From the NCBI RefSeq assembly GCF_009931435.1, contig NZ_CP043414.1: DNA of 64,000 bases. One strand, written 5' to 3'. Position numbers and translations under genes: made by a program. This stretch comes from Escherichia coli (GTDB lineage: Bacteria > Pseudomonadota > Gammaproteobacteria > Enterobacterales > Enterobacteriaceae). This document shows, one piece after another, positions 16,289 to 34,788 of this stretch (its first letter is position 1; each line of letters starts with the position of its first letter). Under the pieces are notes generated by a model, which was not told the origin of the DNA, did not search any database, and was given only the letters and a program-made list of their open reading frames with translations.

Positions 16289-16404
16289 AACGCCTCCAGC
16301 CTCATTACTTACCCGCACAAAATAGAATTGTGCTGTACAAACGTCCAGTTTGAAAGAAGTTTCCTGCGAGGCGCTACGCAAAACGATCCTTAATTTTTAT
16401 TATT

Positions 16405-16444
16405 TTATCCCACAATATGAGACCTAGTTTATATTGTGGGATAA
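16405..16444. promoter_or_regulatory. Perfect 14-bp inverted repeat (TTATCCCACAATAT-N12-ATATTGTGGGATAA), candidate operator for the adjacent IclR-family regulator
   Basis: Read directly in the rmuC / IclR-gene divergent intergenic region, about 60 bp upstream of the regulator ATG. Confidence 0.5.
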
Positions 16445-16503
16445 ATCACCTTTTCCCCACGTCATTATGTGGAACACTTCAGCAATATCATCAGGAGAAA
16501 CGT

Positions 16504-17271: not shown

Positions 17272-17294
17272 ACCATGACTAAAGGAAACGGCTA

Positions 17295-18299: not shown

Positions 18300-18918
18300 T
18301 ACGCTTTTGCAAAAAACCGGGTTAGTCGCCATTTTACGCGGCGTGAAACCGGATGAGATTGTCGCCATCGGTGAAAAGCTGTATGCCGCTGGATTTCGCC
18401 TGATTGAGATTCCCATGAACTCGCCGGAGCCGTTGCAAAGTATCAGTTTACTGCGCGACGCCCTGCCTAAGGACTGCCTGGTCGGAGCCGGAACGGTGCT
18501 TTCGGTGGAGCAAGTCGTCGCGGTTAAAGAGGCTGGAGGCCAGATTATCGTGATGCCGCATTGCGATACTGCGGTGATCCGTCGTGCCCGTGCGCTGGGT
18601 ATGTATTGTGCGCCTGGCGTCGCTACGCCCACCGAAGCTTTTGCTGCCATTGAACATGGCGCCAATGCCATCAAGCTGTTCCCGGCTGAACAAATTACGC
18701 CTGAAGTCACCAAAGCCTGGCGTGCGGTTATTCCACAATCCGTTCCGATGTTACCGGTTGGCGGTATCACTCCAGACACAATGGCGCGTTATCTGAGCCA
18801 CGGCGCAAACGGCTTTGGCCTCGGTTCTGCGCTATATCGCCCCGGCATGACGCCAGAGCAAGTCTATGAAAATGCAGTACTGTTTATGAACGCATGGAAC
18901 AATTTAAATAGCAAATAA
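18289..18918 (+). CDS. KDPG / KDPGal aldolase-family protein (DgoA/Eda-like)
   Basis: Track ORF 18214..18918 trimmed to MPFNTLLQKTGLVAILRGVKPDEIVAIGEKLYAAGF...; overlaps the kinase stop by 11 nt. Confidence 0.7.
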   Translation: MPFNTLLQKTGLVAILRGVKPDEIVAIGEKLYAAGFRLIEIPMNSPEPLQSISLLRDALPKDCLVGAGTVLSVEQVVAVKEAGGQIIVMPHCDTAVIRRARALGMYCAPGVATPTEAFAAIEHGANAIKLFPAEQITPEVTKAWRAVIPQSVPMLPVGGITPDTMARYLSHGANGFGLGSALYRPGMTPEQVYENAVLFMNAWNNLNSK

Positions 18919-18942
18919 CTGATAAATAAGGATATAAAAGCA

Positions 18943-19917
18943 ATGATAAAACATCTTACCTTACCGAAAAAAATGGCTGCAATGGTACTTCTTGCCGGCG
19001 CTGCCCTCAGCACTGCGCCTGTACAGGCGGCCTCCTGGCCAACCAAACAAATCGAGTTAGTCGTACCCTACGCGGCCGGAGGCGGTACGGACCTGGTTGC
19101 CCGAGCCTTTGCTGATGCCGCCAAAAACCATTTACCCGTCAGCATCGGGGTTATCAATAAACCTGGCGGTGGCGGCGCTATCGGCCTGAGTGAAATCGCC
19201 GCTGCCCGCCCTAACGGTTACAAAATGGGTTTAGGCACGGTTGAACTGACCACCCTTCCCAGCCTCGGAATGGTGCGTTTTAAAACCAGCGACTTTAAAC
19301 CCATTGCCCGTCTGAATGCGGATCCGGCGGCTATCACCGTCCGTGCCGATGCGCCGTGGAATAGCTATGAAGAATTTATGACTTACGCCAAAGCGAATCC
19401 CGGAAAAGTACGCATTGGTAACTCAGGCACCGGAGCAATCTGGCATCTGGCGGCAGCTGCACTGGAAGACAAAACGGGCGTGAAGTTTTCTCATGTCCCG
19501 TATGACGGCGCAGCCCCTGCCATTACAGGCCTGTTAGGCGGGCATATTGAAGCGGTTTCCGTAAGCCCAGGTGAAGTTATCAATCATGTGAAAGGCGGCA
19601 AGCTGAAGACACTGGTAGTGATGGCGGATGAACGTATGAAAACCATGCCTGACGTCCCGACGTTAAAAGAGAAAGGCGTTGATCTCTCCATCGGCACCTG
19701 GCGCGGCCTGATTGTGTCGCAAAAAACGCCGCAGGATGTGGTGGATGTGCTGGCAAAGGCAGCAAAAGAGACGGCTGAAGAGCCTGCATTCCAGGATGCA
19801 CTGCAAAAGTTGAATCTCAACTATGCATGGCTTGATGGTGCCAGCTTCCAGACCCAAATCAACGAGCAGGAAAAGTACTTTGACGAGCTTCTGACTCGCC
19901 TGGGCCTGAAAAAATAA
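18943..19917 (+). CDS. Tripartite tricarboxylate transporter periplasmic substrate-binding protein (TctC/Bug family)
   Basis: 324-aa ORF with signal peptide MIKHLTLPKKMAAMVLLAGAALSTAPVQAA; TctC-like sequence. Confidence 0.75.
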   Translation: MIKHLTLPKKMAAMVLLAGAALSTAPVQAASWPTKQIELVVPYAAGGGTDLVARAFADAAKNHLPVSIGVINKPGGGGAIGLSEIAAARPNGYKMGLGTVELTTLPSLGMVRFKTSDFKPIARLNADPAAITVRADAPWNSYEEFMTYAKANPGKVRIGNSGTGAIWHLAAAALEDKTGVKFSHVPYDGAAPAITGLLGGHIEAVSVSPGEVINHVKGGKLKTLVVMADERMKTMPDVPTLKEKGVDLSIGTWRGLIVSQKTPQDVVDVLAKAAKETAEEPAFQDALQKLNLNYAWLDGASFQTQINEQEKYFDELLTRLGLKK

Positions 19918-19933
19918 TCCCGAGGTACGGTCG

Positions 19934-20440
19934 ATGAACACAAAACAGTCTGTTGCTCAACTCGCCGTACCGCACCGCAAGCGCCTTTCATCCACTGTGG
20001 TGGTGGCGCTGTTACTTTGTGTGGTTGCTGGCGCGGTGATAATTAATGCCGCTGATTTTCCAGCAACTGCCATTGAAACGGATCCCGGTGCAAGTGCCTT
20101 CCCTACTTTCTATGCCTGCGCTCTGATTGTGCTCGCTGTCTTACTGGTGATACGCGATCTTTTGCTGGCAAAACCAGTCCCTTGCGCCAACGCACAGGAA
20201 AAACCGGCATTAAGGAAAACGGCAACAGGAATTGCGGCAACCGCGTTTTATATTGTGGCGATGAGCTACTGCGGTTATCTCGTTACTACTCCTGTTTTCC
20301 TCATCGTCATTATGACGTTGATGGGCTACAGGCGATGGGTACTCACTCCGGGTATTGCGCTGCTGTTAACGGCAATCCTCTGGTTGCTGTTTGTCGAAGC
20401 GTTACAGGTGCCATTGCCTGTCGGCACATTTTTCGAATAA
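19934..20440 (+). CDS. Tripartite tricarboxylate transporter small membrane subunit (TctB family)
   Basis: 168-aa hydrophobic ORF between the TctC- and TctA-like genes. Confidence 0.65.
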   Translation: MNTKQSVAQLAVPHRKRLSSTVVVALLLCVVAGAVIINAADFPATAIETDPGASAFPTFYACALIVLAVLLVIRDLLLAKPVPCANAQEKPALRKTATGIAATAFYIVAMSYCGYLVTTPVFLIVIMTLMGYRRWVLTPGIALLLTAILWLLFVEALQVPLPVGTFFE

Positions 20441-20452
20441 CAGGGGCCTGCA

Positions 20453-21943
20453 ATGTTTGAAAGTGAACTTTTAACTCAGGGGTTTTCGACATTACTCAGT
20501 AATCCTCAGGCGCTGCTGTTTGCCACGTTTGGAGTGATGCTGGGTATTATGATTGGCGCTCTGCCTGGCCTGACAGCGACCATGGGTGTGGCGATTTTGC
20601 TGCCTTTCACCTACGGCATGGAGCCTGTTTCTGGCTTGTTGATGATTTGCGGTGTCTTTTTTGGTGGTGTGTATGGTGGTTCTATCACCGCAATTTTGCT
20701 CAAAATTCCCGGTACACCTGCCGCCGCTGCCACCGCCATTGACGGTTATGAGTTAACGAAGCAGGGAAAAGCCGGGCTGGCATTAAGTGCCGCCACGTTC
20801 TCTTCTTTTAGCGGTGGAACGCTCAGCATTATCGTATTGATGTTTCTCTCTCCGGTCCTTGCTAGTTGGGCGTTGAAATTTAGTGCCTCGGAGTCCTTCG
20901 CCCTGGCAACCTTCGGACTGAGCATTATTGCCAGTATTTCCGGTGAGTCGCTGATTAAAGGGCTGATCGCCGGGATTGGCGGATTAATGATCGCAACGAT
21001 AGGCCTCGATCCGATGGGCGGTTTTCCACGCTTTACGGGCGGGTTTGTGGAACTGATGAATGTGCCATTTATCCCGGTGATGATTGGTCTGTTTGCTGCT
21101 TCAGAAGCGTTCCGTTCTATGGAACAAAATCAGCATATTCGTCAGAGCGCGAACGTGGCTATCGGCAGTCTGTTACTGCCCTGGCAAACGCTACGCCGCA
21201 TCGCATTAACCATTTTGCGCTCATCAGGATTAGGGGTTTTTATCGGCATGATCCCCGGTGCGGGGGCAGATATTGCAGCTTTTGTTGCCTATAACGAAAC
21301 TCGTCGTTTCAGTAAGACGCCTGAAAACTTTGGTAAGGGTGAGATTAAGGCGGTGGCCTCCTGTGAGGCAGGCGCGAATGGCTGCACCGGTGGCGCATTG
21401 TTACCTATGCTGACGTTGGGGATCCCAGGCGATGCGGTAACTGCCATCATGCTGGGCGCGTTAACGTTACAAGGGATGCAGCCAGGCCCACTGATGTTTA
21501 CCGACCACGGCGATATGGTTTATACGTTATTTGTCGGCATGATCTTCTGTTACTTCATGCTGCTAGTTCTTGGACTGCTCTCTTTGAAAGTCATCGGTAA
21601 CGTGGTGAAAATTCCCGGCAATATTCTCACACCGATGATCCTCGCACTTTGTGTGGTCGGGACTTATGCGTTGAACAATAGCCTGTTTGATGTTGGCATT
21701 ATGCTGATTGCAGGCGTGGTGGGCTATTTCATGCAAAAAGGGGGATATCCGGCATCACCCGTAGTGCTGGCATTGATTATGGGGCCAATGGCGGAAAGTA
21801 ATTTTCGCCGTGCGCTGTCGCTTTCAGGGGGGTCACTCGACTTCCTGTATACCCGACCGATAACCCTGGCATTGCTGACACTGGCAGCCTTTACGCTACT
21901 GACGCCAATAATACGCAAAATTATGCGCTTACGGCGTCAGTAA
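20453..21943 (+). CDS. Tripartite tricarboxylate transporter large permease (TctA family)
   Basis: 496-aa polytopic membrane ORF MFESELLTQGFSTLLSNPQALLFATFGVMLGIMIGALPGLTATMG...; TctA-like. Confidence 0.75.
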   Translation: MFESELLTQGFSTLLSNPQALLFATFGVMLGIMIGALPGLTATMGVAILLPFTYGMEPVSGLLMICGVFFGGVYGGSITAILLKIPGTPAAAATAIDGYELTKQGKAGLALSAATFSSFSGGTLSIIVLMFLSPVLASWALKFSASESFALATFGLSIIASISGESLIKGLIAGIGGLMIATIGLDPMGGFPRFTGGFVELMNVPFIPVMIGLFAASEAFRSMEQNQHIRQSANVAIGSLLLPWQTLRRIALTILRSSGLGVFIGMIPGAGADIAAFVAYNETRRFSKTPENFGKGEIKAVASCEAGANGCTGGALLPMLTLGIPGDAVTAIMLGALTLQGMQPGPLMFTDHGDMVYTLFVGMIFCYFMLLVLGLLSLKVIGNVVKIPGNILTPMILALCVVGTYALNNSLFDVGIMLIAGVVGYFMQKGGYPASPVVLALIMGPMAESNFRRALSLSGGSLDFLYTRPITLALLTLAAFTLLTPIIRKIMRLRRQ

Positions 21944-23179: not shown

Positions 23180-23989
23180 ATGGCAACAACACAACAATCT
23201 GGATTTGCACCTGCTGCATCACCTCTCGCTTCGACCATCGTTCAGACCCCGGATGACGCGATTGTAGCAGGCATCACCTCTATCCCTTCACAAGGGGATA
23301 ACATGCCTGCTTACCATGCCAGACCAAAGCAGAGCGATGGCCTACTACCAGTGGTCATTGTAGTGCAGGAAATTTTTGGCGTGCATGAACATATCCGCGA
23401 TATTTGTCGCCGTCTGGCGCTGGAGGGGTATCTGGCTATCGCACCTGAACTTTACTTCCGCGAAGGCGATCCGAATGATTTTGCCGATATCCCTACGCTG
23501 CTTAGCGGTCTGGTAGCAAAAGTGCCTGACTCGCAGGTGCTGGCCGATCTCGATCATGTCGCCAGTTGGGCGTCACGCAACGGCGGCGATGTTCATCGCT
23601 TAATGATCACCGGATTTTGCTGGGGTGGGCGCATCACCTGGCTGTATGCTGCGCATAATCCACAACTGAAAGCAGCGGTGGCATGGTACGGCAAATTAAC
23701 CGGCGATAAGACGCTGAATTCACCGAAACAACCTGTTGATATCGCAACCGATCTTAACGCTCCGGTTCTCGGCTTATATGGCGGCCAGGATAACAGCATT
23801 CCGCAGGAGAGCGTTGAAACCATGCGCCAGGCGCTGCGGGCTGCTAATGCGAAAGCAGAGATTATCGTCTACCCGGATGCCGGGCATGCATTCAACGCCG
23901 ATTATCGCCCGAGCTATCATGCCGAATCTGCGAAAGATGGCTGGCAGCGAATGCTGGAGTGGTTTAAGCAGTATGGTGTTAAAAAGTAA
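23180..23989 (+). CDS. dlhH: Dienelactone hydrolase-family protein DlhH (YsgA)
   Basis: Track ORF 23114..23989 trimmed to MATTQQSGFAPAASPLASTIVQTPDD...; matches remembered YsgA. Confidence 0.85.
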   Translation: MATTQQSGFAPAASPLASTIVQTPDDAIVAGITSIPSQGDNMPAYHARPKQSDGLLPVVIVVQEIFGVHEHIRDICRRLALEGYLAIAPELYFREGDPNDFADIPTLLSGLVAKVPDSQVLADLDHVASWASRNGGDVHRLMITGFCWGGRITWLYAAHNPQLKAAVAWYGKLTGDKTLNSPKQPVDIATDLNAPVLGLYGGQDNSIPQESVETMRQALRAANAKAEIIVYPDAGHAFNADYRPSYHAESAKDGWQRMLEWFKQYGVKK

Positions 23990-24055
23990 CGCCATAGCCG
24001 CTAAATCTGATGATTAAGCTCACACAATTTCAACGATTTTTTTAATCTCAAAACC

Positions 24056-24084
24056 ATACAGCATCAAAAAATTTGTTGCTGTAT
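24056..24084. promoter_or_regulatory. Dyad ATACAGCA-N13-TGCTGTAT with a degenerate second copy about 75 bp downstream, candidate regulator binding site upstream of the accessory operon
   Basis: Read directly in the 256-bp leader upstream of the isochorismatase-like gene; second copy GCAAAAATTTCGTTGCTGTGC near 24132..24152. Confidence 0.35.
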
Positions 24085-24245
24085 GCCACTCTTTGACTCC
24101 CTTCACATTCGTCATCACACCACCTGTTGAATGCAAAAATTTCGTTGCTGTGCGGCAAACTTTTTTCCTGTTTTATGCCGCTTTTCTCCTGAATACTCGC
24201 TCTCAGAACAACTGGATCGTTTAAACATCAGACAGGAGATTTACC

Positions 24246-24914
24246 ATGACGCAATCCATTTTTCAGGCTCAACCCTTTGAATTACCTTTTGATCCGCGCA
24301 CAACTGCACTGGTCATGATCGACATGCAGCGTGACTTTGTCGAAGCAGGGGGCTTCGGTGAGGCACTGGGCAATGATGTTTCACTGGTACGCACGGCTAT
24401 CGCACCATGTACAGAGGTGCTGGCAGCCGCACGTCAAAAAGGAATTATGGTTATTCATACTCGTGAAGGCCATCGTGCAGACTTAAGCGACTGCCCGCCA
24501 GCCAAACTGACGCGCGGCGGAAAAACCTTTATTGGTGAACCAGGACCGATGGGACGCATTCTGGTCAGAGGTGAAGCGGGTCATGACATCATTCCTGAAC
24601 TGTACCCAGTGACAGGCGAACCGGTGATTGATAAGCCCGGTAAAGGCGCTTTTTATCAAACCGACTTACATCTGATTTTGCAAAACCACGGTATCAAGAC
24701 GCTGATAGTTTGTGGTGTAACAACCGAAGTTTGCGTAACCACCACCGTGCGCGAAGCAAATGACCGTGGCTATGAATGCATTATCCCGGAAGATTGTGTC
24801 GGCTCATATTTCCCGGAATTCCAGAAATATGCCCTCGAGATGATCAAAGCACAAGGTGCCATTTTCGGTTGGGTGAGTGATTCCAAAGCCATTATTGCAG
24901 GTCTGGAAGGCTAA
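24246..24914 (+). CDS. Isochorismatase-family cysteine hydrolase (RutB / N-carbamoylsarcosine amidase-like)
   Basis: 222-aa ORF; family motifs ALVMIDMQRDF (Asp), conserved Lys and LIVCGVTTEVCV (catalytic Cys); GGAG RBS. Confidence 0.75.
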   Translation: MTQSIFQAQPFELPFDPRTTALVMIDMQRDFVEAGGFGEALGNDVSLVRTAIAPCTEVLAAARQKGIMVIHTREGHRADLSDCPPAKLTRGGKTFIGEPGPMGRILVRGEAGHDIIPELYPVTGEPVIDKPGKGAFYQTDLHLILQNHGIKTLIVCGVTTEVCVTTTVREANDRGYECIIPEDCVGSYFPEFQKYALEMIKAQGAIFGWVSDSKAIIAGLEG

Positions 24915-24919
24915 CGCCG

Positions 24920-25780
24920 ATGGTACAGGTGACGCTTTGCGCATCATCGTTGGGATATCTTTTCCCGCAAAATGAAACGCAAGATTTACGTCTGCATAGT
25001 GCTTTTAAACATGCGGTAAATCTGTATTCAGAAGCGGGAACATTCATCACTCTGTTGTGTGCGCAAACGTATCTGAATCTCCCTGATGCCGCCAGAGTCA
25101 ACCTGCCTGAGAATTGGGACTGGCGAAGAGAGATTGCCCATTCAGATCCCATTCAGTTAACCCCAGGCTTGTTACAAACACCTCGCTTTTGCGTGGTGCT
25201 TCATAACACAACACTTTGGCAACCGCCATTTGTGGGGGGAATGCTGACACTTGAGGCATTCCCTTTGGTTTTCCAGCACTACCCAACGATGGCATCGCAA
25301 CGGCTTTTATTTTGTCTGGAGCATAACGTTCAAAGCACATTGCACCTGCCGGATAGTCTCACGCACCAGGGATTAGCGATTATGGAACATCCAGATGCAC
25401 TGGAACGCCAGGTGCCACAACTGATCGGCTTTGGTAAAGGCTTAACGCCCGATGGAGATGACTATTTGTTGGGCTATCTGGCAGCGCTCTGGTTATGGCA
25501 ACTCCCTGCAACACTTGCCGATCATCAATACCGGTTGCAGCAGGCAATTGATCAACATGCGCACAACACCACGGATATCAGTCGTCATTATCTGGAGCGT
25601 GCGCTTCAGGGGCATTTTTCAGAACCGATTTGCCAGTTACTCGCACAACTGGTTGGGGGCGCATCGGAAATGACAATCGCATCCTGTGCAGAACAGGTCA
25701 TGCAATTTGGCGCAACGTCAGGAGTAGATTGCCTTGCAGGAATGCTGCATGGCTTTCGAACCCTGAACACCATGAATTGA
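24920..25780 (+). CDS. DUF2877-family protein (YlbF/YahE-like)
   Basis: 286-aa ORF starting 6 bp after the hydrolase stop; resemblance to YlbF/YahE proteins that accompany FdrA-like genes. Confidence 0.55.
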   Translation: MVQVTLCASSLGYLFPQNETQDLRLHSAFKHAVNLYSEAGTFITLLCAQTYLNLPDAARVNLPENWDWRREIAHSDPIQLTPGLLQTPRFCVVLHNTTLWQPPFVGGMLTLEAFPLVFQHYPTMASQRLLFCLEHNVQSTLHLPDSLTHQGLAIMEHPDALERQVPQLIGFGKGLTPDGDDYLLGYLAALWLWQLPATLADHQYRLQQAIDQHAHNTTDISRHYLERALQGHFSEPICQLLAQLVGGASEMTIASCAEQVMQFGATSGVDCLAGMLHGFRTLNTMN

Positions 25781-25874
25781 TTTCAACCTTTTCTCCCGTA
25801 GCCCATTTATGGCGCTACACGGGGATGCTTTGCCCGAATTTTGCTATCGGGCGGAATAAAACAGGCGTAACAGC

Positions 25875-27434
25875 ATGAAAGTTAAATATAAAGTTTTCAG
25901 CAATCTTTATCAGGACTCGGTTTCTCTGATGCAGATTTCCGCGCAAATCAGTAAGTTGCCCGGTATTCAACAGGCCTCGGTCGTCATGGGAACACCCAAT
26001 AATCTCGAACAATTGCGCGATGCGGGTCTGGGTAACGAAATCAACGCCAGTCCCAATGATTTAGTGATTGCAGTCATGGGTGAAGAAGATATTTGCAATG
26101 AAGCACTGATACTGGCCCAGCAACGTCTGACCAGCAAACCCGATGATGAAACGGATAGTGGCATTAAAACACCGGAAAATGTCAGCCTGGAAATGGCACT
26201 GGAAGCCGACACCGAAGCCAACCTGGCACTCATTTCTGTACCGGGAGACTACGCCGCCGCCGAAGCAATTAAAGCGTTAAACCTCGGAATGAACGTGATG
26301 ATGTTCAGCGATAACGTCAGTATCGGGCAGGAAAAATCCATCAAAACACTTGCCCGAGAACGTCAGCGCATCGTAATGGGACCTGATTGTGGAACCGCCA
26401 TTGTTAACGGCATTCCGTTAGGCTTCGCTAATGTGGTGAAACGCGGAGCAATTGGTGTTATTGGCGCGTCAGGCACCGGGCTACAGGAAGTGACTTGCCG
26501 AATCGACCAGCTCGGAGCGGGTATTTCTCAGGCGTTGGGAACAGGCGGGCATGATCTCAGTGAAGAGATTGGTGGAATATCGATGCTCTTCGCTTTAGAT
26601 GCGCTGGCGCAAGACGATGAAACTCGCGTGATTGTGCTTATTTCAAAACCGCCTTCACCGATCGTTGCCCGGGCTATTCTGGAGCGCGCCGAGGCTTGTG
26701 GAAAACCCGTGGTGGTGAATTTCCTCGGTGCGAATCCGCATGATCTGGCACGTCCCAATATCACCGCTGCCGCCACACTTGCCAGCGCCGCAAATATCGC
26801 CGTGGCAGTACTGAATGATCAGCCACTTCCGACTGTCGAGACCGAGATTTCCTGCGACGATCTCACAATGTTACAAAACGCCTGCCAGCGTCTGCCAGCC
26901 CATCGCCAGGCGATACGCGGTGTTTTCGCCGGAGGAACCTTCTGTTACGAAGCGCAACTTATCTGCCAGCAAAAGGGATTCAGCGCCGCCTCCAATACGC
27001 CAGTTGCGGGTAATCGTACTCTGGCAAATATCTGGCAAAGCAAAGGTCACACGCTGATCGATATGGGCGACGATGATTTCACCCGTGGCAAACCGCATCC
27101 AATGATCGACCCGACTCTGCGCAATCAACGTCTGCTCAACGAACTCAACGACTCACACACTGCCGTCGTGTTATTCGACCTGGTACTTGGTTATGGCGCT
27201 TCCGCTACGCCTGCCAGCGAATTACTGGACCAACTTTCACACATCGACATGAATAACGCACCGTTGCTGATTGCGCACGTTTGCGGAACGGAAGCTGATC
27301 CGCAAATACGCAGTCAGCAGATAAGCGCACTACAAAATGCGGGCATCATCATTGCCAGCAGCAATGCACAGGCGGCGCTATGGGCCAGCGCCGTTGCGCA
27401 GACTCAGTTGCAGAAAAAGGGGCTAAACGCATGA
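25875..27434 (+). CDS. FdrA-family protein (CoA-ligase-like; FdrA/YahF paralogue)
   Basis: 519-aa ORF MKVKYKVFSNLYQDSVSLMQISAQ...; conserved blocks NVMMFSDNV, MGPDCGT, GVIGASGTGLQE and GKPHPMIDPTLRNQ match remembered FdrA. Confidence 0.75.
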   Translation: MKVKYKVFSNLYQDSVSLMQISAQISKLPGIQQASVVMGTPNNLEQLRDAGLGNEINASPNDLVIAVMGEEDICNEALILAQQRLTSKPDDETDSGIKTPENVSLEMALEADTEANLALISVPGDYAAAEAIKALNLGMNVMMFSDNVSIGQEKSIKTLARERQRIVMGPDCGTAIVNGIPLGFANVVKRGAIGVIGASGTGLQEVTCRIDQLGAGISQALGTGGHDLSEEIGGISMLFALDALAQDDETRVIVLISKPPSPIVARAILERAEACGKPVVVNFLGANPHDLARPNITAAATLASAANIAVAVLNDQPLPTVETEISCDDLTMLQNACQRLPAHRQAIRGVFAGGTFCYEAQLICQQKGFSAASNTPVAGNRTLANIWQSKGHTLIDMGDDDFTRGKPHPMIDPTLRNQRLLNELNDSHTAVVLFDLVLGYGASATPASELLDQLSHIDMNNAPLLIAHVCGTEADPQIRSQQISALQNAGIIIASSNAQAALWASAVAQTQLQKKGLNA

Positions 27435-28855
27435 ATACCTTATTTAATCAGCCTTTGAAGGTCGTGAACGCGGGACTACACAGTTTTGCTGACAATATTC
27501 AACATGCCGGGGGAAGCGCAATTGCACTCAACTGGCAGCCACCAGCACAAGGCGATATTGACGCTGGATTGGATCTGGCATCGTTGCTACGTCATCCACT
27601 AGTAGAAAATGCCAATCAAATCGCCATGACACGTTATCTCGAAGCACAACCCGTGCTGGTGGATGTCATGCTCGCTAAAGAGGCCATTCCAGCAATGGCT
27701 GAACAAAAACGTATTTTGCACTCTGGTCCGCCGATTGCCTGGGAAGAGATGTGTGGTCCGGTAAAAGGGGCGATTATTGGTGCCATGCTGTACGAAGGTT
27801 GGGCCACCAGCCAGCAAGACGCTGAAAACCAGATAAACACAGGCGAAATCGACCTTGCCCCTTGTCATCATTATCACGCGGTTGGACCAATGGCAGGCAT
27901 CATCAGCCCGTCGATGCCGTTATGGGTGGTAGAAAACAAAACCAACGGCCACCGTACTTTTAGCAATTTCAATGAAGGTCTGGGTAAGGTTCTCCGTTTT
28001 GGTGCCAATAACGATGAAGTTCTCAATCGTCTGGCCTGGATGCGCGATGAACTGGCACCGGCAATGAAAGCAGCAATCGCACAACACGGCGAGCTGGAAC
28101 TCAAGCCATTAATGGCGCAGGCGCTGCATATGGGGGATGAAGTTCATAACCGCAATGCTGCCGCTACCGGTTTGCTGATTAAGCGCCTGCTCCCGGCATT
28201 GCTGGCCTGCTCTATTCCACAGGAACATATCCAGCGCGTCGTGGCATTTATCACCAGTAACGATCACTTCTTCCTCAATCTGTCGATGGCTGCCTGTAAA
28301 GCGATGATGGATGCCGCCGCCAATGTACCGTTCAGTTCAATGGTTACGGTGATGGCGCGTAACGGGGTGAATTTTGGTATTCGGCTTTCCGGTACTGGCG
28401 ATCGCTGGTTCCAGGCTCCTGCCAATGCAGTTGAAGGTCTGTTCTTCCCCGGATTTGGCGTCGACGATGCCGCTGCTGACCTGGGTGATAGCGCAATTAC
28501 CGAAACCGCAGGTGTGGGTGGCTTCGCGATGGCGTCATCTCCAGCGATCGTCAAATTTGTGGGAGGCACCCCTGCCGATGCCACCAATAACAGCCGTAGG
28601 ATGCAAGCAATCACCCTCGGTGGTAACCCCGCATTTACACTTCCTGCCCTCAATTTTGCCCCCACCGCAGCAGGGATTGATGCGCGTAAAGTGACCGATC
28701 GCGGCATTTTACCGGTCATCAATACGGGTATCGCCCACAAACAAGCGGGGGTCGGGCAAATTGGTGCCGGGATCACCACTGCGCCGATGGCCTGTTTTGT
28801 CGCCGCTGTACGTGCACTGTCTGAGATCGTCGCAAAGGAGAACCATCATGGTTAA
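27431..28855 (+). CDS. DUF1116-family protein (YlbE/YahG-like)
   Basis: Track ORF 27380..28855 trimmed to MNTLFNQPLKVVNAGLHSFADNIQ...; ATGA overlap with the FdrA-like stop. Confidence 0.65.
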   Translation: MNTLFNQPLKVVNAGLHSFADNIQHAGGSAIALNWQPPAQGDIDAGLDLASLLRHPLVENANQIAMTRYLEAQPVLVDVMLAKEAIPAMAEQKRILHSGPPIAWEEMCGPVKGAIIGAMLYEGWATSQQDAENQINTGEIDLAPCHHYHAVGPMAGIISPSMPLWVVENKTNGHRTFSNFNEGLGKVLRFGANNDEVLNRLAWMRDELAPAMKAAIAQHGELELKPLMAQALHMGDEVHNRNAAATGLLIKRLLPALLACSIPQEHIQRVVAFITSNDHFFLNLSMAACKAMMDAAANVPFSSMVTVMARNGVNFGIRLSGTGDRWFQAPANAVEGLFFPGFGVDDAAADLGDSAITETAGVGGFAMASSPAIVKFVGGTPADATNNSRRMQAITLGGNPAFTLPALNFAPTAAGIDARKVTDRGILPVINTGIAHKQAGVGQIGAGITTAPMACFVAAVRALSEIVAKENHHG

Positions 28856-29804
28856 GCCACTGGCTGTTGTCGCAGTTGGCGGCAATGCGCTCATTCAGGA
28901 CGAGCAACGCAATAGTATTCCCGATCAATATGTTGCAGTGATGGAAAGCGTGCAGCATATCGTTGATATGGTTGAAGCCGGATGGGACCTGGTGCTTACC
29001 CACGGTAATGGCCCGCAGGTGGGCTTTATTCTGCGCCGCTCTGAACTCGCCAGTAACGAAGTTTCTCCGGTTCCACTTGATTACGCCGTGGGTGATACAC
29101 AAGGTGCAATTGGCTACATGTTCCAGAAAGCGCTGCATAACGAATTGGCTCGCCGTGGCATAAACAAACCGGTAATTGCGCTGGTGACACAAACGCGAGT
29201 CTGCCCACATGACGATGCTTTCACCAGCCCCAGTAAACCGATTGGCGCGTTTCTCGATGAAGCAACGGCCCTACAACGCCAACAGCAACTCGGCTGGACG
29301 CTGATGGAGGACGCCGGGCGTGGTTGGCGGCGTACAGTTCCCTCTCCTGCGCCACTGGAAATTATTGAGCACGACACCATCGCTCACCTGGTGCGCCAGG
29401 GATATCTGGTTATTGCCTGCGGCGGTGGCGGTATTCCGGTGGTGCGAGACGGACAACAACTGAAAGGTGTGGAAGCCGTGATCGATAAAGATCTGGCCTC
29501 CGCGCTGCTCGCCAGTCAGTTAGGCGCAGATCTGCTGGTGATCCCCACCGGTGTAGAAAAAGTGGCGATTAACTTTGGTACACCACAACAACAGTGGCTC
29601 GACGCTATCAGCGTTGCCGAAGCGCAAACGCTGTTACGGGAAGGTCAGTTTGGTGTCGGCAGTATGCAGCCCAAAGTGGAAGCCATTGTTGATTTCATCA
29701 ATGCCAGCCAACAACAAGGCAAACAGGCCAGCGGCCTGATTACTTCACCGCAAACCATAAAAGCAGCCCTTTCGCATCAGAGCGGCACATGGATAACCCT
29801 TTAA
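28848..29804 (+). CDS. Carbamate kinase-family protein (ArcC/YahI-like)
   Basis: Track ORF 28761..29804 trimmed to MVKPLAVVAVGGNALIQDEQ... after AAGGAG RBS; amino-acid-kinase fold signatures (AVGGNAL, THGNGPQVG, VIACGGGGIPV); overlaps upstream gene by 8 nt. Confidence 0.75.
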   Translation: MVKPLAVVAVGGNALIQDEQRNSIPDQYVAVMESVQHIVDMVEAGWDLVLTHGNGPQVGFILRRSELASNEVSPVPLDYAVGDTQGAIGYMFQKALHNELARRGINKPVIALVTQTRVCPHDDAFTSPSKPIGAFLDEATALQRQQQLGWTLMEDAGRGWRRTVPSPAPLEIIEHDTIAHLVRQGYLVIACGGGGIPVVRDGQQLKGVEAVIDKDLASALLASQLGADLLVIPTGVEKVAINFGTPQQQWLDAISVAEAQTLLREGQFGVGSMQPKVEAIVDFINASQQQGKQASGLITSPQTIKAALSHQSGTWITL

Positions 29805-29820
29805 TTCTCTGGAGAACTCA

Positions 29821-30210
29821 ATGACTACAACACTTTTAGCCGTTAACGGAACGCTGATGCGTGGCCTGGAACTCAACCCAAATATGCAAAAAGCGGGCGG
29901 CATTTTTGTCCGTGAAGACCGAACTGACGCCCATTACAGGTTGTGGAGTATTAACGATCGTCATCCGGGAATGATTCGCGTGAATGAAGGAGGAACACAC
30001 GTCGACGTAGAAATTTGGCAATTACCACTGACCAGTTTTGCCGCTCTGTTAATGAGCGAACCCGCTGGGCTGGCAATTGGCAAAATCAAACTTGCCGATG
30101 GTAGCGAAGTGCTGGGCGTACTGGCAGAAAACTGGCTGACCGAAGGCCAACGGGAAATTACAGAACTGGGTAGCTGGCGCAAATACACCGGGCATTTTCA
30201 TACTGTGTAA
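29821..30210 (+). CDS. Small protein, possibly gamma-glutamylcyclotransferase / AIG2-like fold
   Basis: 129-aa ORF MTTTLLAVNGTLMRGLELNPNM...; the N-terminal [YV]G[ST]LM/K motif resembles GGCT-like proteins; weak assignment. Confidence 0.4.
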   Translation: MTTTLLAVNGTLMRGLELNPNMQKAGGIFVREDRTDAHYRLWSINDRHPGMIRVNEGGTHVDVEIWQLPLTSFAALLMSEPAGLAIGKIKLADGSEVLGVLAENWLTEGQREITELGSWRKYTGHFHTV

Positions 30211-30235
30211 CGCGCATTTTTAAAGGGAACATACT

Positions 30236-31459
30236 ATGCGTAAAAAAGAAGAGAATCTGAATACAGCATCAGGATTGCGTATTGCCATGATTTTACTGGG
30301 TATTGCCGTCACACCTGTGCTGTTGTCATCCTCAAGCCTCGGCAATCAACTTTCCAGCGGCAGTTTAATTAGCGTCGTATTGTTAGGCGGCGTCATTCTG
30401 ACCTTACTTTCAGCCATCACCATTAGCGTGGGAGAAAAAGCCCGCCTGCCAACGTATGGCATTGTGAAATATTCGTTTGGCGAAAAAGGGGCCATCGCCA
30501 TTAACATTTTGATGGCGATAAGTCTGTTCGGCTGGATTGCCGTTACCGCCAATATGTTTGGTCATTCGGTACATGACTTACTGGCTCAACATGGACTGGA
30601 AGTTCCACTAGCACTGTTAGTGGCTGCTGGCTGTGTCATTTTTGTCGCCTCTACAGCATTTGGTTTTGCCGTTCTGGGAAAAATTGCCCAGGTTGCCGTG
30701 CCGGTTATCGCGCTGGTGCTGTGTTACATCCTCTATGTGGCAACCCATACCGAAGTGGCAGCACCAGCGGTGATTGTGGAGATGAATACGGGTGTCGCTG
30801 TTTCCACCGTTGTTGGCACCATTATTGTGCTGGTTGCCACACTGCCTGATTTCGGTAGTTTTGTGCATAACCGCAAACATGCGCTGATTGCCGCAGGCGT
30901 GACGTTTCTGGTTGCCTACCCTCTGCTCTACTGGGCGGGAGCAACGCCGAGCGCCATTAGTGGTCAGGGATCTTTACTGGGTGCGATGGCGGTATTCGGT
31001 GCGGTTCTGCCCGCGGCGCTGTTGTTGATTTTCGCCTGCGTCACCGGTAACGCGGGCAATATGTTCCAGGGCACGCTGGTGGTTTCCACACTGCTTACCC
31101 ACTTTCCCAAATGGCAGATTACCGTGGCGCTGGGTATCCTTTCCGCCATCGTAGGCAGTCTGGATATTATGGCGTGGTTTATTCCGTTTCTGCTGTTCCT
31201 GGGTATCGCCACGCCACCCGTTGCCGGAATTTATATCGCTGACTTTTTCCTTTATCGCCGTAATGGCTATCAAGAGTCAGTGTTAGCCCAGGAGTCACAG
31301 ATCAAAGTGCTGACATTCGCAGCATGGATCATAGGTGCAGCGGTTGGCTTTATGACCGTAAAAGGCTTATTCACCCTGACGACAATCCCTTCGGTAGACT
31401 CGATTCTGGTGGCATGTATCGCGTATGCGATTCTCAGTCGGGCAAGTCAACGCCGCTAA
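30236..31459 (+). CDS. Polytopic membrane permease, possibly nucleobase-cation symporter (CodB/NCS1-like)
   Basis: 407-aa highly hydrophobic ORF with about 12 predicted TM stretches; family assignment tentative. Confidence 0.5.
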   Translation: MRKKEENLNTASGLRIAMILLGIAVTPVLLSSSSLGNQLSSGSLISVVLLGGVILTLLSAITISVGEKARLPTYGIVKYSFGEKGAIAINILMAISLFGWIAVTANMFGHSVHDLLAQHGLEVPLALLVAAGCVIFVASTAFGFAVLGKIAQVAVPVIALVLCYILYVATHTEVAAPAVIVEMNTGVAVSTVVGTIIVLVATLPDFGSFVHNRKHALIAAGVTFLVAYPLLYWAGATPSAISGQGSLLGAMAVFGAVLPAALLLIFACVTGNAGNMFQGTLVVSTLLTHFPKWQITVALGILSAIVGSLDIMAWFIPFLLFLGIATPPVAGIYIADFFLYRRNGYQESVLAQESQIKVLTFAAWIIGAAVGFMTVKGLFTLTTIPSVDSILVACIAYAILSRASQRR

Positions 31460-31536
31460 TTCCTGGGTATACTCAGGCAATGATTACGGCTGAATCTGGA
31501 GAGATTCAGCCACTTTACCACTGACCAGGGAGCCTT

Positions 31537-32433
31537 ATGTTCATCTCAGACGAAACGCTTCGTGTTATTCATCTGGTCGCCAGACACCAGAGCATTACCA
31601 CCGCAGCCGAACAGTTAAATAAAGTCCCTTCCGCCATCAGTTACACCATCAAGAAAGTGGAAGAGAGCCTGGGCGTTGAACTGTTCATTCGTAAGGGACG
31701 CTATATTGAATTATCTCCGGCGGGGAGTTACTTCATCGAACATAGCAAAACTATTCTGGGCGACCTGGAAGCATTAAAGCGCAACACAGTGCTGATTCAC
31801 GATGGTATTGAACGTGAACTGACAATTGCGGTGAACAATATTATTCCTGGTGATTTGCTGGTGGCATTTATTCGAGATTTTGAACGGCAATTCACATCAA
31901 CAACACTGACGGTAGATCTTGAGGTATACAACGGCTGCTGGGATGCGCTGTACAGTAAGCGTGCTGATCTGGTCTACGGTGCTCCTCATGCAGTGCCAAG
32001 CAGTGAAGGCATCATTAGCGAACCGGTCGGACAAATGGAATGGGATTTTGTCGTCAGCCCACTCCACCCACTGGCAGCGAAGCGGCATCCATTAGAAAAC
32101 AGTGAATTGCGTCATTATCCAGCGGTTTGTATCCGCGATACCTCCGTTAACTTCCCCCCGATGCAAGCCTGGCTGTTGGAAGGACAAAAACCGATTTTTG
32201 TTCCTGACTTCGCTACGGCAATCGCCTTAATAGAACAAAACGTCGGTATTGGTTATATTCCACATCATCTGGCATTGCCGTTATTGAACAGCGGTAAATT
32301 GCTTAAAAAGCCAATGCGCGAACATAAACACGCCACCAAGTTATTTCTTGCCGCTCGTTCCGATGGTATGGGCAAAGCCTGTCAGTGGTGCATAGAATAT
32401 TTAAGAAATCCGCAATTAATTTTCTGTTCCTGA
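31537..32433 (+). CDS. LysR-family transcriptional regulator
   Basis: 298-aa ORF with N-terminal LTTR helix-turn-helix SITTAAEQLNKVPSAISYTIKKVEESLGVELFIRKGR; GGGAG RBS. Confidence 0.75.
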   Translation: MFISDETLRVIHLVARHQSITTAAEQLNKVPSAISYTIKKVEESLGVELFIRKGRYIELSPAGSYFIEHSKTILGDLEALKRNTVLIHDGIERELTIAVNNIIPGDLLVAFIRDFERQFTSTTLTVDLEVYNGCWDALYSKRADLVYGAPHAVPSSEGIISEPVGQMEWDFVVSPLHPLAAKRHPLENSELRHYPAVCIRDTSVNFPPMQAWLLEGQKPIFVPDFATAIALIEQNVGIGYIPHHLALPLLNSGKLLKKPMREHKHATKLFLAARSDGMGKACQWCIEYLRNPQLIFCS

Positions 32434-32462
32434 AGATCCACATCATACCTGGCATACATAGC

Positions 32463-32495
32463 AAAATGGCTTCCGGTGTTGGAAGCCATTATTGT
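32463..32495. terminator. Bidirectional terminator between the LysR gene and metE (convergent)
   Basis: Perfect hairpin AATGGCTTCCGGTGTTGGAAGCCATT flanked by T-runs on both strands. Confidence 0.6.
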
Positions 32496-32526
32496 GCTGC
32501 AATTTACAATGACTCGTTAATACTCA

Positions 32527-34788
32527 TCATCCCCGACGCAAATTCTGCGCCGCCTGCACCATGTTCGCCAGTGCCGCGCGGGTTTCTGGCCAGCCGCGCG
32601 TTTTCAAACCACAGTCCGGGTTAACCCACAGACGCTCTGCCGGAATGCGTTTTGCCGCTTTCTTCAGCAGGGACTCAATCCATTCCACGCTCGGTACGTT
32701 TGGCGAGTGAATGTCATAGACGCCTGGACCAATTTCATTTGGATAATCAAACTCTTCAAACGACTCCAGCAACTCCATGTCGGAACGCGAGGTTTCGATT
32801 GTGATGACGTCAGCATCCAGCGCCGCAATCGAATCCATGATGTCGTTGAACTCGCAGTAACACATGTGAGTGTGGATTTGCGTGTCATCTTTCGCTACGG
32901 CAGCGTTGATACGGAAAGCCTCCACGCCCCACTGGAGATAGGCATCCCAGTCGCTGCGACGCAGTGGTAAACCTTCGCGCAATGCCGGTTCGTCAATCTG
33001 AATGATGCCAATTCCAGCGGCTTCCAGATCGGCCACTTCATCACGCAGCGCCAGCGCAATTTGTTTGGCGATGGTTTCACGGCTGACATCTTCACGCGGG
33101 AACGACCAGCAGAGAATGGTCACCGGGCCAGTCAGCATCCCTTTCACCGGTTTGTCGGTCAGCGATTGCGCATACTTTGCCCACTCCACGGTAATCGGTG
33201 CCGGGCGGCTAACGTCACCAATGACAATCGGCGGTTTCACGCAGCGGGAACCGTAGCTCTGTACCCAACCGTTTTGTGTAAAGACAAAACCGTCGAGGTG
33301 CTCACCAAAGTATTCCACCATGTCATTACGCTCGGCCTCACCATGCACCAGCACATCCAGACCCAGACGTTCCTGCTCAACAATGGCCTGCTTGATATGT
33401 TCTGCAATGCCCGTACGATAGTTGTTGGCGTCGAGATTACCCTTTTTGAAATCCAGACGCAGGGTACGGATTTCTGTGGTTTGCGGGAAAGAGCCAATCG
33501 TGGTGGTCGGCCACGCGGGCAGTTTAAAACGCGCACGCTGGGCTTCAGCACGCACTTCATAGACATTCGCACGCTGACTGTCCTGGGCGGTGATCGCCGC
33601 CAGACGCTTTTCTACTGCCGGATTATGTACACGAGTAGAGTGACGACGCGCCTGAATCGGTGCACTCCACTCTGCCAGAGCTGCCGTGTCACCACTGTTC
33701 AGCGCATCGCGCAGCAATGCCAGTTCATGGCATTTTTGCAGGGCGAAGGCAAACCAGCTTTTCACTTCTGCATCAAGACGCGTTTCCACGCTCAGGTCGA
33801 TAGGGCTGTGCAGCAATGAGCAGGAAGATGCCACCCACAAATCACGTTTGCCGACAATGTCCTTAATTTGCGCATATTTCTCGGTAAGATCGGCGCGCCA
33901 GACGTTACGACCATTGATAAGACCAGCAGATAGCAGCCAGTCAGAAGGCAGACGCTTGTGCAGTTCAGCAACGTCATCTTTACCATGTACGAGATCGACA
34001 TGCAGACCCTGAACAGGCAGCGCAGTAATGGTGTCGAGGTTTGGCGTTACGCCTTCAAAATAGGTAGTCAGCAGCAGTTTCACCTGGCCCTGGAGCGCGT
34101 CGTAAGCGGGTTTATAGGCGTCCAGCCACGCCTGCGGCAGTTCCAGCACCAGCGCGGGTTCGTCGATCTGTACCCACTCAATGCCACGTTTTGCCAGTTC
34201 TGCCAACACTTGCTGATAAACCGGCAGAATGTCGCTCAGCAGGCTCAGGCGATCAAACTGTTCACCTTTCACTTTACCCAGCCACAGGTAGGTAACCGGT
34301 CCCAGCAGCACGGGCTTGACCTTGTGGCCCAGCGCCAGCGCCTCGTCCACTTCCTCCAGCAGCTGCGTCCAGGTCAGTTTGAACTGTTGGCCTTTAACGA
34401 ACTCCGGCACCATGTAGTGATAGTTGGTGTTAAACCATTTGGTCATTTCCGCTGCCGCCGCAGGTTCGCCAGTCGGTGCACGTCCACGACCAATACGGAA
34501 CAGAGTGTCGATATCTACCGAACCATCTTTGTTCTGGTGACGCGCCGGAACGTTACCCAGCAGCAGACTGGTGGTCAGTACATGATCGTACCAGGCAAAA
34601 TCGCCCACCGGCAGCAGGTCGATACCCGCTTGCTTTTGTTGATCCCAGTGACGAGCACGCAGTTCACGCCCTACCGCCAGCAGTTCTTCACGCGTGGAGT
34701 TCCCCGCCCAATAACTCTCTTGCGCTTTTTTCAGCTCGCGACGCAGGCCAACGCGAGGGAAACCGAGGGTGTGATTCAATATTGTCAT
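32527..34788 (-). CDS. metE: Cobalamin-independent methionine synthase MetE
   Basis: 753-aa [33 protein letters not shown]...; matches MetE. Confidence 0.97.

Follow-up and report, generated by a model that had tools for sequence, protein, structure and literature searches.

A cassette of eight co-directional genes, occupying the gap between ysgA (dlhH) and metE, was analysed in a 64,000-nucleotide stretch of the Escherichia coli contig NZ_CP043414.1 (assembly GCF_009931435.1), referred to hereafter as the window. The cassette is a conserved, horizontally mobile unit that encodes a cysteine hydrolase, a third set of AllF/AllG/AllH-family proteins with an adjoining carbamate kinase, a free-standing version of the C-terminal domain of allophanate hydrolase (AH_C), a permease and a LysR-type regulator. 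On the evidence of its sequence, the hydrolase is a member of the TrtA (triuret hydrolase) clade. The original prediction for this locus had been of an island that imports a ureide and degrades it with a gain of ATP, and the gene content and protein families make that general interpretation, from ureide to carbamoyl phosphate to ATP, very probable; the pairing of a TrtA-type hydrolase with an AH_C protein narrows the likely substrate class to the triuret/biuret/allophanate family. That the cassette is a self-contained mobile operon that takes up and catabolizes a small linear ureide, with triuret as the best candidate, we judge to have an even chance, and the naming of triuret specifically as the substrate stands at evens or slightly below.

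The genes of the cassette, with lengths in amino acids (aa), are as follows:

24246..24914, plus strand: TrtA-type isochorismatase-like cysteine hydrolase, 222 aa (Pfam Isochorismatase 2.5e-47; triad D26/K130/C163, with Q203).
24920..25780, plus strand: AllH/DUF2877-family protein, 286 aa (Pfam AllH 1.8e-27; 25% identical to YahE and, over a partial alignment, 33% to YlbF).
25875..27434, plus strand: AllF/FdrA-family subunit of a putative carbamoyltransferase, 519 aa (Pfam CoA_binding and Ligase_CoA 1.5e-39).
27431..28855, plus strand: AllG/DUF1116-family subunit, 474 aa (Pfam AllG 7.1e-99; start overlaps the AllF stop, ATGA).
28848..29804, plus strand: carbamate kinase, 318 aa (Pfam AA_kinase 5.9e-23; 48% identical to YahI, 38% to AllK/YbcF).
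29821..30210, plus strand: stand-alone allophanate-hydrolase C-terminal-domain protein, 129 aa (Pfam AH_C 3.0e-41; CFT073 c4763, PDB 5C5Z).
30236..31459, plus strand: NCS1-family permease, putative substrate importer, 407 aa (Pfam Transp_cyt_pur 3.0e-14).
31537..32433, plus strand: LysR-type regulator of the PunR/AllS subgroup, 298 aa (Pfam HTH_1 and LysR_substrate).

All eight open reading frames (24246-32433) were found where the original prediction had placed them between dlhH and metE, on the plus strand and with the tight junctions that it had described, the overlaps being 4 bp (AllF/AllG) and 8 bp (AllG/kinase) and the remaining intergenic gaps along the cassette 5, 94, 16, 25 and 77 bp. 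Pfam and NCBIfam profile searches agreed with its assignment of the products to the FdrA, DUF1116, DUF2877, carbamate kinase, isochorismatase, permease and LysR families, with scores far above chance. The same eight genes are present in the RefSeq annotation of the closest genome, that of a goat isolate (99.5% identical).

Searches against the PDB returned the TrtA of Herbaspirillum as the best match of the hydrolase (6XIX, 269 bits), followed by BiuH (234-239 bits; 6AZO, 239) and RutB (106 bits). RutB and N-carbamoylsarcosine amidase, earlier put forward as its relatives, do share the isochorismatase family with it, though the nearest characterized enzymes are TrtA and BiuH. The score against the NCBIfam BiuH model (279.6 bits) fell under the cut-off of 370, and that against the RutB model TIGR03614 was 113 bits for a cut-off of 378. 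RutB of the Rut pathway is likewise a cysteine hydrolase of the isochorismatase-like type and has a ureido compound as its substrate; with so weak a match, and no other Rut genes or Rut operon context in the block, the identification of the hydrolase as RutB was ruled out.

The study that described TrtA identified its catalytic triad, the residues contacting triuret (D24, E72, K132, Q202, T158 and E160) and six positions at which the TrtA and BiuH consensus sequences differ (F35, N41, A134, E160, Y187 and I205), and found the enzyme to be highly specific, approximately 10^4-fold less active on biuret and not converted by single substitutions (PMC7948467). In the window hydrolase, D26/K130/C163 and the V-T cis-peptide motif V158-T159 align with TrtA D24/K129/C162 and V157-T158, and F37, N43, A135, E161, Y188 and I206, together with Q203, reproduce the pattern of 6XIX, whereas BiuH carries Y, Y, S, D, T and V at the six discriminating positions. 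All 14 catalytic, ligand-contact and TrtA-versus-BiuH discriminating positions were thus those of TrtA, and the same was found in 75 of 82 relatives, the other seven (six mycobacterial, and one from a Chloroflexota metagenome-assembled genome, MAG) having A134S as their sole change, a substitution that is neutral in TrtA (PMC7948467). The full BiuH pattern was seen in three BiuH-type sequences, including the genuine BiuH paralogues at loci L078 and L086. A neighbour-joining distance tree rooted on BiuH, and carrying no support values, nested the window hydrolase within the TrtA clade and apart from BiuH. Not one position was conserved amongst the cassette hydrolases yet different in the TrtA sequences encoded beside BiuH/AtzF, with 82 positions shared. 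Orthologues 79-88% identical to the hydrolase occur across several proteobacterial orders. A search of 50%-cluster representatives with the hydrolase yielded for the most part fragments and two-domain fusions; many representatives of ~460-640 aa (P0121-P0128, P0132, P0135) were observed to comprise two tandem isochorismatase-like domains, both matching the hydrolase, and may be natural TrtA-BiuH fusions.

The next four proteins of the block resemble two sets already encoded in E. coli K-12. Relative to K-12 AllF, AllG, AllH and AllK, the identities of the window F-, G-, H- and K-type proteins were 41, 48, 33 and 38%, and relative to YahF, YahG, YahE and YahI they were 42, 46, 25 and 48%, distances approximately the same as that of all from yah. 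The AllF-type protein (41% to K-12 FdrA, 42% to YahF) scored 495 bits against the NCBIfam FdrA subfamily (cut-off 433), and the AllG-type protein, 48% identical to YlbE and 46% to YahG, was 56-98% identical to cassette orthologues in other phyla. With FdrA-like, AllG and AllH genes encoded together, adjacent or overlapping, the three belong to the AllFGH-type carbamoyltransferase family, and the fourth protein scored as a carbamate kinase (TIGR00746 arcC equivalog, 362.2 bits against 358.25; PRK12352, 373.4 against 266). Amongst 5426 complete E. coli genomes, allFGHK was found in 5407, yahEFGIJ in 4667 and the island in 1554 (~29%), and strain NRG857c harbours the yah set and the island together. 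The similar divergence from all and yah, along with this co-existence, identifies the block as a genuine additional set, the third paralogous set that had been proposed; a different locus, a different gene order and identities of 25-48% ruled out the canonical all or yah locus itself.

The characterized relatives give this set its presumed chemistry. AllFGH was identified in 2024 as an oxamic transcarbamylase (OXTCase) that turns oxalurate and phosphate into carbamoyl phosphate and oxamate and for which AllH is needed in E. coli (PMC11326118), and in anaerobic allantoin degradation YbcF/AllK serves as the catabolic carbamate kinase (PMC11326118, PMC9843812). The idea that such gene sets release carbamoyl phosphate for a carbamate kinase has therefore been demonstrated experimentally for AllFGH and AllK (PMC11326118, PMC9843812). 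The window set and E. coli allFGH-allK share the same three families with an adjoining carbamate kinase and, presumably, the logic of phosphorolysing an N-carbamoyl compound to carbamoyl phosphate and then ATP. Neither the locus, the gene order nor the level of identity is, however, that of orthologues of the characterized AllF/G/H: identities are 33-48%, the order is H-F-G-K rather than the F-G-H-K of K-12 (fdrA-ylbE-ylbF-ybcF), the locus is accessory rather than core, and the window set has its own hydrolase, AH_C protein, permease and regulator, and probably a different substrate. The uncharacterized yah set (yahE-yahF-yahG-(yahH)-yahI-yahJ, with the divergent LysR gene yahB) is alike in its H-F-G-K order, its associated amidohydrolase and LysR regulator and its kinase, YahI being the closest to that of the window (48%); it differs in that YahJ is a metal-dependent amidohydrolase and not an isochorismatase-family enzyme, in having neither AH_C nor an NCS1 permease, and in identities of 25-48%.

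In a transposon screen of the adherent-invasive E. coli strain NRG857c, one of the genes listed for in vivo fitness in the gut encodes a carbamate kinase, NRG857_19070 (PMC8016931); by its position this may be the cassette kinase (NRG857_RS19505; NC_017634.1 4047296-4048252; L011 37297-38253). A paper on the in-patient transcriptome of uropathogenic E. coli (UPEC) mentions fdrA/ylbE for the core all locus only.

The gene context of the hydrolase was surveyed by tblastn with eight probes, within 9 kb, at 80 loci (one genome per species; hydrolases 68-98% identical). AllF and AllG were encoded nearby at 69 of these, AllF, AllG and the carbamate kinase at 63, and the stand-alone AH_C protein at 59, never without AllF/G in the vicinity. 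The hydrolase, AllF, AllG, kinase, AH_C and NCS1 permease occurred together at 48 loci and all eight genes at 34. Gene order was retained across the Enterobacterales, Vibrionales, Burkholderiales and Neisseriales, and Caballeronia, Photobacterium profundum and Silvimonas have an identical order amid wholly different neighbours; the LysR gene lies downstream in the Enterobacterales and Burkholderiales and upstream in the Vibrionales. Hosts comprised Enterobacterales, Vibrionales, Shewanella, Avibacterium, Aeromonas, Burkholderiales, Neisseriales, Dyella and Pseudovibrio, with further instances in Mycobacterium/Mycolicibacterium, Chloroflexi MAGs and a Desulfotomaculum MAG. The mycobacteria keep only a five-gene core (hydrolase, AllF, AllG, kinase and AH_C), with unrelated regulators in the flanks. 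The most divergent gene of the cassette was that of AllH (26-59% identity), which could not be detected, even by profile hidden Markov model, in approximately 14 of 69 otherwise intact cassettes (L021, L026, L046, L047, L051, L056, L067, L074, L077, L079, L080, L083, L087 and also L013), the six mycobacterial cassettes all being among them. An assembly recorded under a Bacteroidota genus, as Chryseobacterium sp. 18061 (L017), contains a full cassette with 80-89% identity to those of Buttiauxella and E. coli, for which contamination or mislabelling is likelier than cross-phylum transfer.

Copies of the cassette ~94% identical to that of the window were found on insertion sequence (IS)-flanked segments of conjugative plasmids: complete E. 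coli genomes contain 129 plasmid places of this kind, and the whole eight-gene cassette is carried by 82 plasmids in PLSDB (78 from E. coli, 4 from Klebsiella). For instance, on plasmid pEND_Eco 16002 of avian pathogenic E. coli (APEC) (L002 8012-16190) the cassette is flanked by IS fragments and adjoined by ABC transporter and bacteriocin immunity genes. Fourteen of 25 evenly sampled plasmid records were of poultry origin (chicken, duck or turkey), these birds being uric-acid-excreting hosts. The island is also enriched in extraintestinal pathogenic strains.

The genomic association of TrtA with biuH and atzF is absent from the window cassette and from 69 of the 80 related loci. Nine loci lacked AllF/G, two of them being tiny contigs; a full-length allophanate hydrolase scoring above its curated cut-off lies beside the hydrolase at L073 and L086, and a BiuH-type paralogue at L078 and L086, which is the TrtA/BiuH/AtzF layout known from the canonical hydrolytic pathway (PMC7948467). 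Since the loci without AllF/G carry allophanate hydrolase and/or BiuH, the two enzyme sets, BiuH with AtzF on the one hand and AllF/G(/H) with the kinase and a free-standing copy of the AtzF C-domain on the other, look like alternative endings that follow the same hydrolase. A hybrid arrangement was observed in a marine alphaproteobacterial MAG (L075 3947-9681), where the operon for a TrtA-type hydrolase, a permease and AllHFGK has ahead of it a full-length allophanate hydrolase gene in divergent orientation, two more amidase genes and one for an AllD-like dehydrogenase; BiuH was not found there within 20 kb, and the arrangement could help to pinpoint the carbamoyl donor.

The small sixth protein had been described as GGCT-like, which holds for its fold, its specific family being Pfam AH_C and its GGACT match marginal (1.9e-3). 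It is identical at 128 of 129 residues to PDB 5C5Z (c4763), and covers only positions 472-595 of the 600-position NCBIfam allophanate hydrolase model; the amidase-signature N-terminal domain is missing, and no amidase gene is present in the cassette. The C domain of allophanate hydrolase and urea amidolyase (4ISS, 4GYR, 5I8I; PMC5770610) and 5C5Z have in common the AH_C family and the GGCT-like fold, and the N and C domains of allophanate hydrolase are said to catalyse sequential steps (PMC5770610). Alignment of 59 stand-alone sequences, in which 50 of 129 positions were at least 95% conserved, with eight fused AH/AtzF C-domains (including those of L073, L075, L082, L086, L090, 4GYR and 5I8I) distinguished the former as a subfamily with 13 switched invariant positions: N9, T11, L12, R14, N21, E32, W42, H48, E80, G83, K88, L98 and V100. 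From fused to stand-alone, the changes include His to Leu12, Lys to Leu98 and Arg/Lys to His48, with R14, E32, E80 and K88 as new invariant residues. The histidine found in 8/8 fused domains is leucine in 59/59 stand-alone proteins, and we take it to be the K. lactis His492 proposed to be catalytic. With such positions switched, the stand-alone protein probably does not perform the canonical C-domain reaction, yet it belongs to the conserved core.

By analogy with the characterized enzymes, we infer the identity of the substrate, the carbamoyl donor, the role of AH_C, the regulation and the ATP gain in the scheme that follows. Triuret (carbonyldiurea) is a non-enzymatic oxidation product of uric acid that is present in human urine and forms from urate and peroxynitrite. 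The NCS1 permease would import it, and the TrtA-type hydrolase would remove one terminal amide to give carboxybiuret and NH3. Carboxybiuret decarboxylates to biuret with a half-life of ~20 min (PMC7948467), and biuret would be a dead end for a cassette that has no BiuH, so the cassette would have to intercept the intermediate. An AllF/AllG(/AllH) carbamoyltransferase, in place of BiuH and allophanate hydrolase, is predicted to move the terminal carbamoyl group of the intermediate to phosphate; carboxybiuret is the likeliest donor, yielding carbamoyl phosphate and allophanate, with allophanate or biuret as possible donors. In structure, carboxybiuret (H2N-CO-NH-CO-NH-COO-) closely resembles oxalurate (H2N-CO-NH-CO-COO-) but is longer by one atom. 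A second round of phosphorolysis, on allophanate, may follow. The carbamate kinase would then convert carbamoyl phosphate and ADP to ATP and carbamate, the latter decaying to NH3 and CO2. The stand-alone AH_C protein may act on, or channel, the unstable N-carboxy intermediate, or it may instead speed decarboxylation to biuret (a TrtB role), in which case AllF/G would cleave biuret to carbamoyl phosphate and urea. The PunR/AllS-like LysR protein would activate the promoter. In its fullest form, that of an undescribed phosphorolytic, ATP-yielding triuret route in which AllF/G has a new specificity, one or two carbamoyl phosphates are formed per molecule and AH_C is an essential partner, the scheme is put forward tentatively and is rather doubtful.

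Two known systems serve for comparison. In the hydrolytic triuret pathway of Herbaspirillum and Rhizobium, TrtA-(TrtB)-BiuH-AtzF (PMC7948467), the first enzyme is of the same clade and has an identical active-site signature, and a homologue of the AtzF C-domain is kept in the cassette; the latter, however, has AllH/F/G and a kinase instead of BiuH, TrtB and the AtzF amidase domain, and would, by prediction, yield substrate-level ATP where that pathway is purely hydrolytic. In comammox Nitrospira and ammonia-oxidising archaea, trtA/biuH/atzF were reported in 2025 to lie beside allFGHK and codB (PMC12625717), which is the same association as in the cassette. Those systems retain BiuH/AtzF and were read as two neighbouring pathways, for triuret and for oxalurate, whereas a compact cassette that lacks both BiuH and the amidase points to one integrated pathway.

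Several observations weigh against a triuret route. The window hydrolase is 58% identical to the sole characterized TrtA and 54% to BiuH, so that its assignment to TrtA rests on the signature residues and the tree position. AllH is missing from approximately 14 cassettes despite being required for E. coli OXTCase (PMC11326118), so that in this subfamily AllH may be dispensable or provided in trans. Identity of the cassette AllF/G/H proteins to the characterized enzyme is 33-48%, and that an AllFGH-type enzyme phosphorolyses carboxybiuret, allophanate or biuret is a prediction. The invariant residues of AH_C are unlike those of allophanate-hydrolase C-domains, and the primary scheme assigns this protein no necessary step. 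The AllHFGK operon of the marine MAG, having an AllD-like dehydrogenase nearby, could simply serve oxalurate. To our knowledge E. coli lacks urease, and the branch ending in urea would lose half of the nitrogen. For the genes of the cluster, the apo crystal structure of c4763 is the only experimental result, and the pathway as a whole is predicted; its steps have been demonstrated for homologues only, namely the TrtA reaction (PMC7948467), the AllFGH oxalurate reaction (PMC11326118) and the catabolic role of AllK (PMC9843812).

One rival is an oxalurate-type alternative, in which AllF/G/H would be a second oxamic transcarbamylase and the hydrolase would make oxalurate or an N-carbamoyl-oxo-acid from oxaluramide or from a ureide derived from parabanate or alloxan, or would deamidate oxamate. 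The only characterized member of the family does use oxalurate (PMC11326118), the LysR protein resembles AllS, an AllD-like dehydrogenase stands beside the cluster of the marine MAG, and the mSystems paper on nitrifiers takes allFGHK beside trtA/biuH as an oxalurate pathway (PMC12625717). We nonetheless regard this alternative as unlikely, given that allFGHK is already present in 99.6% of E. coli genomes and the cassette proteins resemble Yah as closely as All, that the hydrolase keeps all of the triuret-contact residues of the extremely specific TrtA, and that AH_C and the alternation with BiuH/AtzF point to allophanate-family chemistry.

A biuret pathway, with the hydrolase as a biuret hydrolase or a generalist producing allophanate for phosphorolysis by AllF/G/H, draws on the fact that the NCBIfam BiuH model is the best curated match (280 bits), that JGI labels many of the orthologues "biuret amidohydrolase" and that a natural biuret/triuret generalist, RhdBiuH, exists (PMC7948467). 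The score nevertheless falls short of the 370 bits that the BiuH model requires, each of the six discriminating residues is of the TrtA type, unlike those of the L078 and L086 paralogues, and the roughly 10^4-fold lower activity of TrtA on biuret was not overcome by single substitutions (PMC7948467); we consider this pathway unlikely.

The authors of a genome paper on the APEC strain BEN2908 (PMC12928451) suggested pyrimidine nitrogen scavenging, whereby a CodB-like importer would supply a RutB-like hydrolase that frees carbamate from a ureidoacrylate-like intermediate. Within NCS1 the permease does belong to the cytosine-permease branch, and homology to RutB is seen in the hydrolase. However, RutB is a far weaker match than TrtA or BiuH (113 versus 280 bits in NCBIfam, and 106 versus 269 in the PDB), and no RutA/F, dihydropyrimidinase or barbiturase was encoded in the cassette (80 loci, tblastn with eight probes) or in the annotated flanks. 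The permease is moreover distant from CodB, scoring 146 bits against the NCBIfam CodB cut-off of 326, and is therefore not CodB itself. This proposal thus appears highly improbable. Urease-independent use of urea via allophanate, suggested for c4763 as relayed in a citing paper on the strength of its homology to the allophanate hydrolase C-domain, is scarcely tenable and was rejected, as the cassette has neither a urea carboxylase nor an amidase-signature domain and the histidine of all eight fused C-domains is leucine in the 59 stand-alone proteins.

The island was less novel than the original prediction had assumed, having been annotated and discussed in PMC2831201 and PMC12928451 and, for c4763, via PMC7558591. 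A synteny survey of 2010 placed it inside a CFT073 block common to three of the four UPEC genomes compared (PMC2831201), and this survey alone turned up in a literature search with the neighbouring CFT073 locus tags. The genome paper on BEN2908, published in 2026, lists it as "GR 29 metE..ysgA", with pyrimidine-derived nitrogen scavenging as a guess (PMC12928451), and c4763 is reported, at second hand in a citing paper, as a UPEC-specific homologue of allophanate hydrolase (PMC7558591). In the literature searched, no paper was found that gives the block a substrate or ties it to triuret. The island is accordingly one already annotated and described, and what is new is the proposal that its chemistry is of the triuret family, with an ending that is phosphorolytic and yields ATP.

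At its site, the cassette forms part of a larger accessory block relative to K-12:

23979..32526, no strand assigned: whole accessory block, 8,548 bp, standing where K-12 has a 39-bp hairpin spacer that separates the convergent genes ysgA and metE.

The left flank comprises udp (minus strand) and ysgA (plus strand), and the right flank metE (minus strand) and metR. Homology to K-12 stops at 23978, in the last codons of ysgA, and restarts at the metE stop codon (32527), from which it follows that the 8.5-kb block replaces the small hairpin spacer of K-12. In K-12 the site is empty, with 39 bp between the stop codons of ysgA and metE, in keeping with the earlier statement that K-12 has no such genes at this position. 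Presence/absence polymorphism at this fixed site is clear; no integrase, tRNA, or direct or flanking repeats were seen at the chromosomal copy, and the composition profile showed no clear GC anomaly for the island. The island junction alters the YsgA/DlhH C-terminus (window 23960-23989, compared with L008 5355-5400), which reads ...QYGVKK* as opposed to ...QYGGKKSL* in K-12, and the metE stop codon is TGA in the window and TAA in K-12.

Strains NC101 (L009 19644-26866) and NRG857c (L011 27236-34458) harbour an extra block of ~7.5 kb between the cassette LysR gene and metE, with genes for RpiR, transketolase, a ptsG-like protein and hxlB and a tssD pseudogene; it is absent from the window (32434-32526) and the goat isolate, so that the metE-ysgA gap has at least two independently variable modules. 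A second accessory block in the window, at ~16000-21943 between rmuC and udp (L001 1-3944; L009 3681-9120), encodes an IclR regulator, 2-dehydro-3-deoxygalactonokinase-like and aldolase-like proteins and a TctC/TctB/TctA tripartite tricarboxylate transporter; in K-12, rmuC directly follows udp without this block.

Candidate regulatory elements were sought in an alignment of 12 Enterobacterales upstream regions (mean column identity 55%) and, downstream, by reading the sequence between the LysR and metE stop codons:

24060..24081, plus strand: conserved dyad site 1, AGCATCAA-N6-TTGTTGCTG, of the GCA-N10-TGC type; candidate regulator-binding site from the phylogenetic footprint.
24131..24160, plus strand: conserved dyad site 2, ATGCAAAAATTTCGTTGCTGTGCGGCAAAC, with (near-)invariant columns; candidate LysR-type site, its centre ~45 nt upstream of the -10 box.
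24192..24197, plus strand: putative -10 hexamer AATACT, with a weak -35; A153/T155/A156/C157/T158 invariant in 12 genera.
24234-24238, plus strand: Shine-Dalgarno sequence AGGAG, conserved in the 12 upstream regions.
32466..32489, no strand assigned: hairpin with a 9-bp stem, ATGGCTTCC-GGTGTT-GGAAGCCAT; not flagged by the terminator scan.

The two dyads are of the same GCA...TGC type and lie ~70 bp apart. A generic sigma-70 scan did not flag the AATACT box, and a promoter/terminator pattern scan of 23800-32700 was uninformative, shuffled sequence giving more matches and the conserved -10 box going undetected; the footprint of dyads and AATACT box, not flagged by the sigma-70 scan, fits an activator-dependent promoter. 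The LysR protein, whose closest relatives are the purine-linked regulators PunR (289 bits, NCBIfam cut-off 345) and AllS (216 bits, cut-off 372), both under their cut-offs, would bind the dyads. The hairpin is possibly a bidirectional terminator. An Rfam search at E<=1 returned only sub-threshold matches to Fluoride (20 bits, gathering threshold 34) and Mu-gpT-DE (20 versus 49).

The present assignment provides a testable function for a block that has been flagged as UPEC-specific or as associated with extraintestinal pathogenic E. coli for more than 15 years. Were the triuret assignment wrong, the cross-phylum five-gene core would still mark a widespread, uncharacterized nitrogen-catabolic module. 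If it is correct, the AllFGH carbamoyltransferase family would gain a second class of substrate, the orphan c4763 structure would acquire a pathway context, and the cassette would represent a natural swap of the hydrolytic ending of the triuret/biuret pathway for a phosphorolytic, energy-conserving one; the co-location of trtA/biuH with allFGHK in nitrifiers could likewise be one pathway rather than two. It would also link bacterial fitness to the chemistry of urate oxidation in urine, the inflamed gut and birds, with urease-negative extraintestinal and avian E. coli gaining nitrogen and energy from a urate oxidation product at inflamed or urate-rich host sites.

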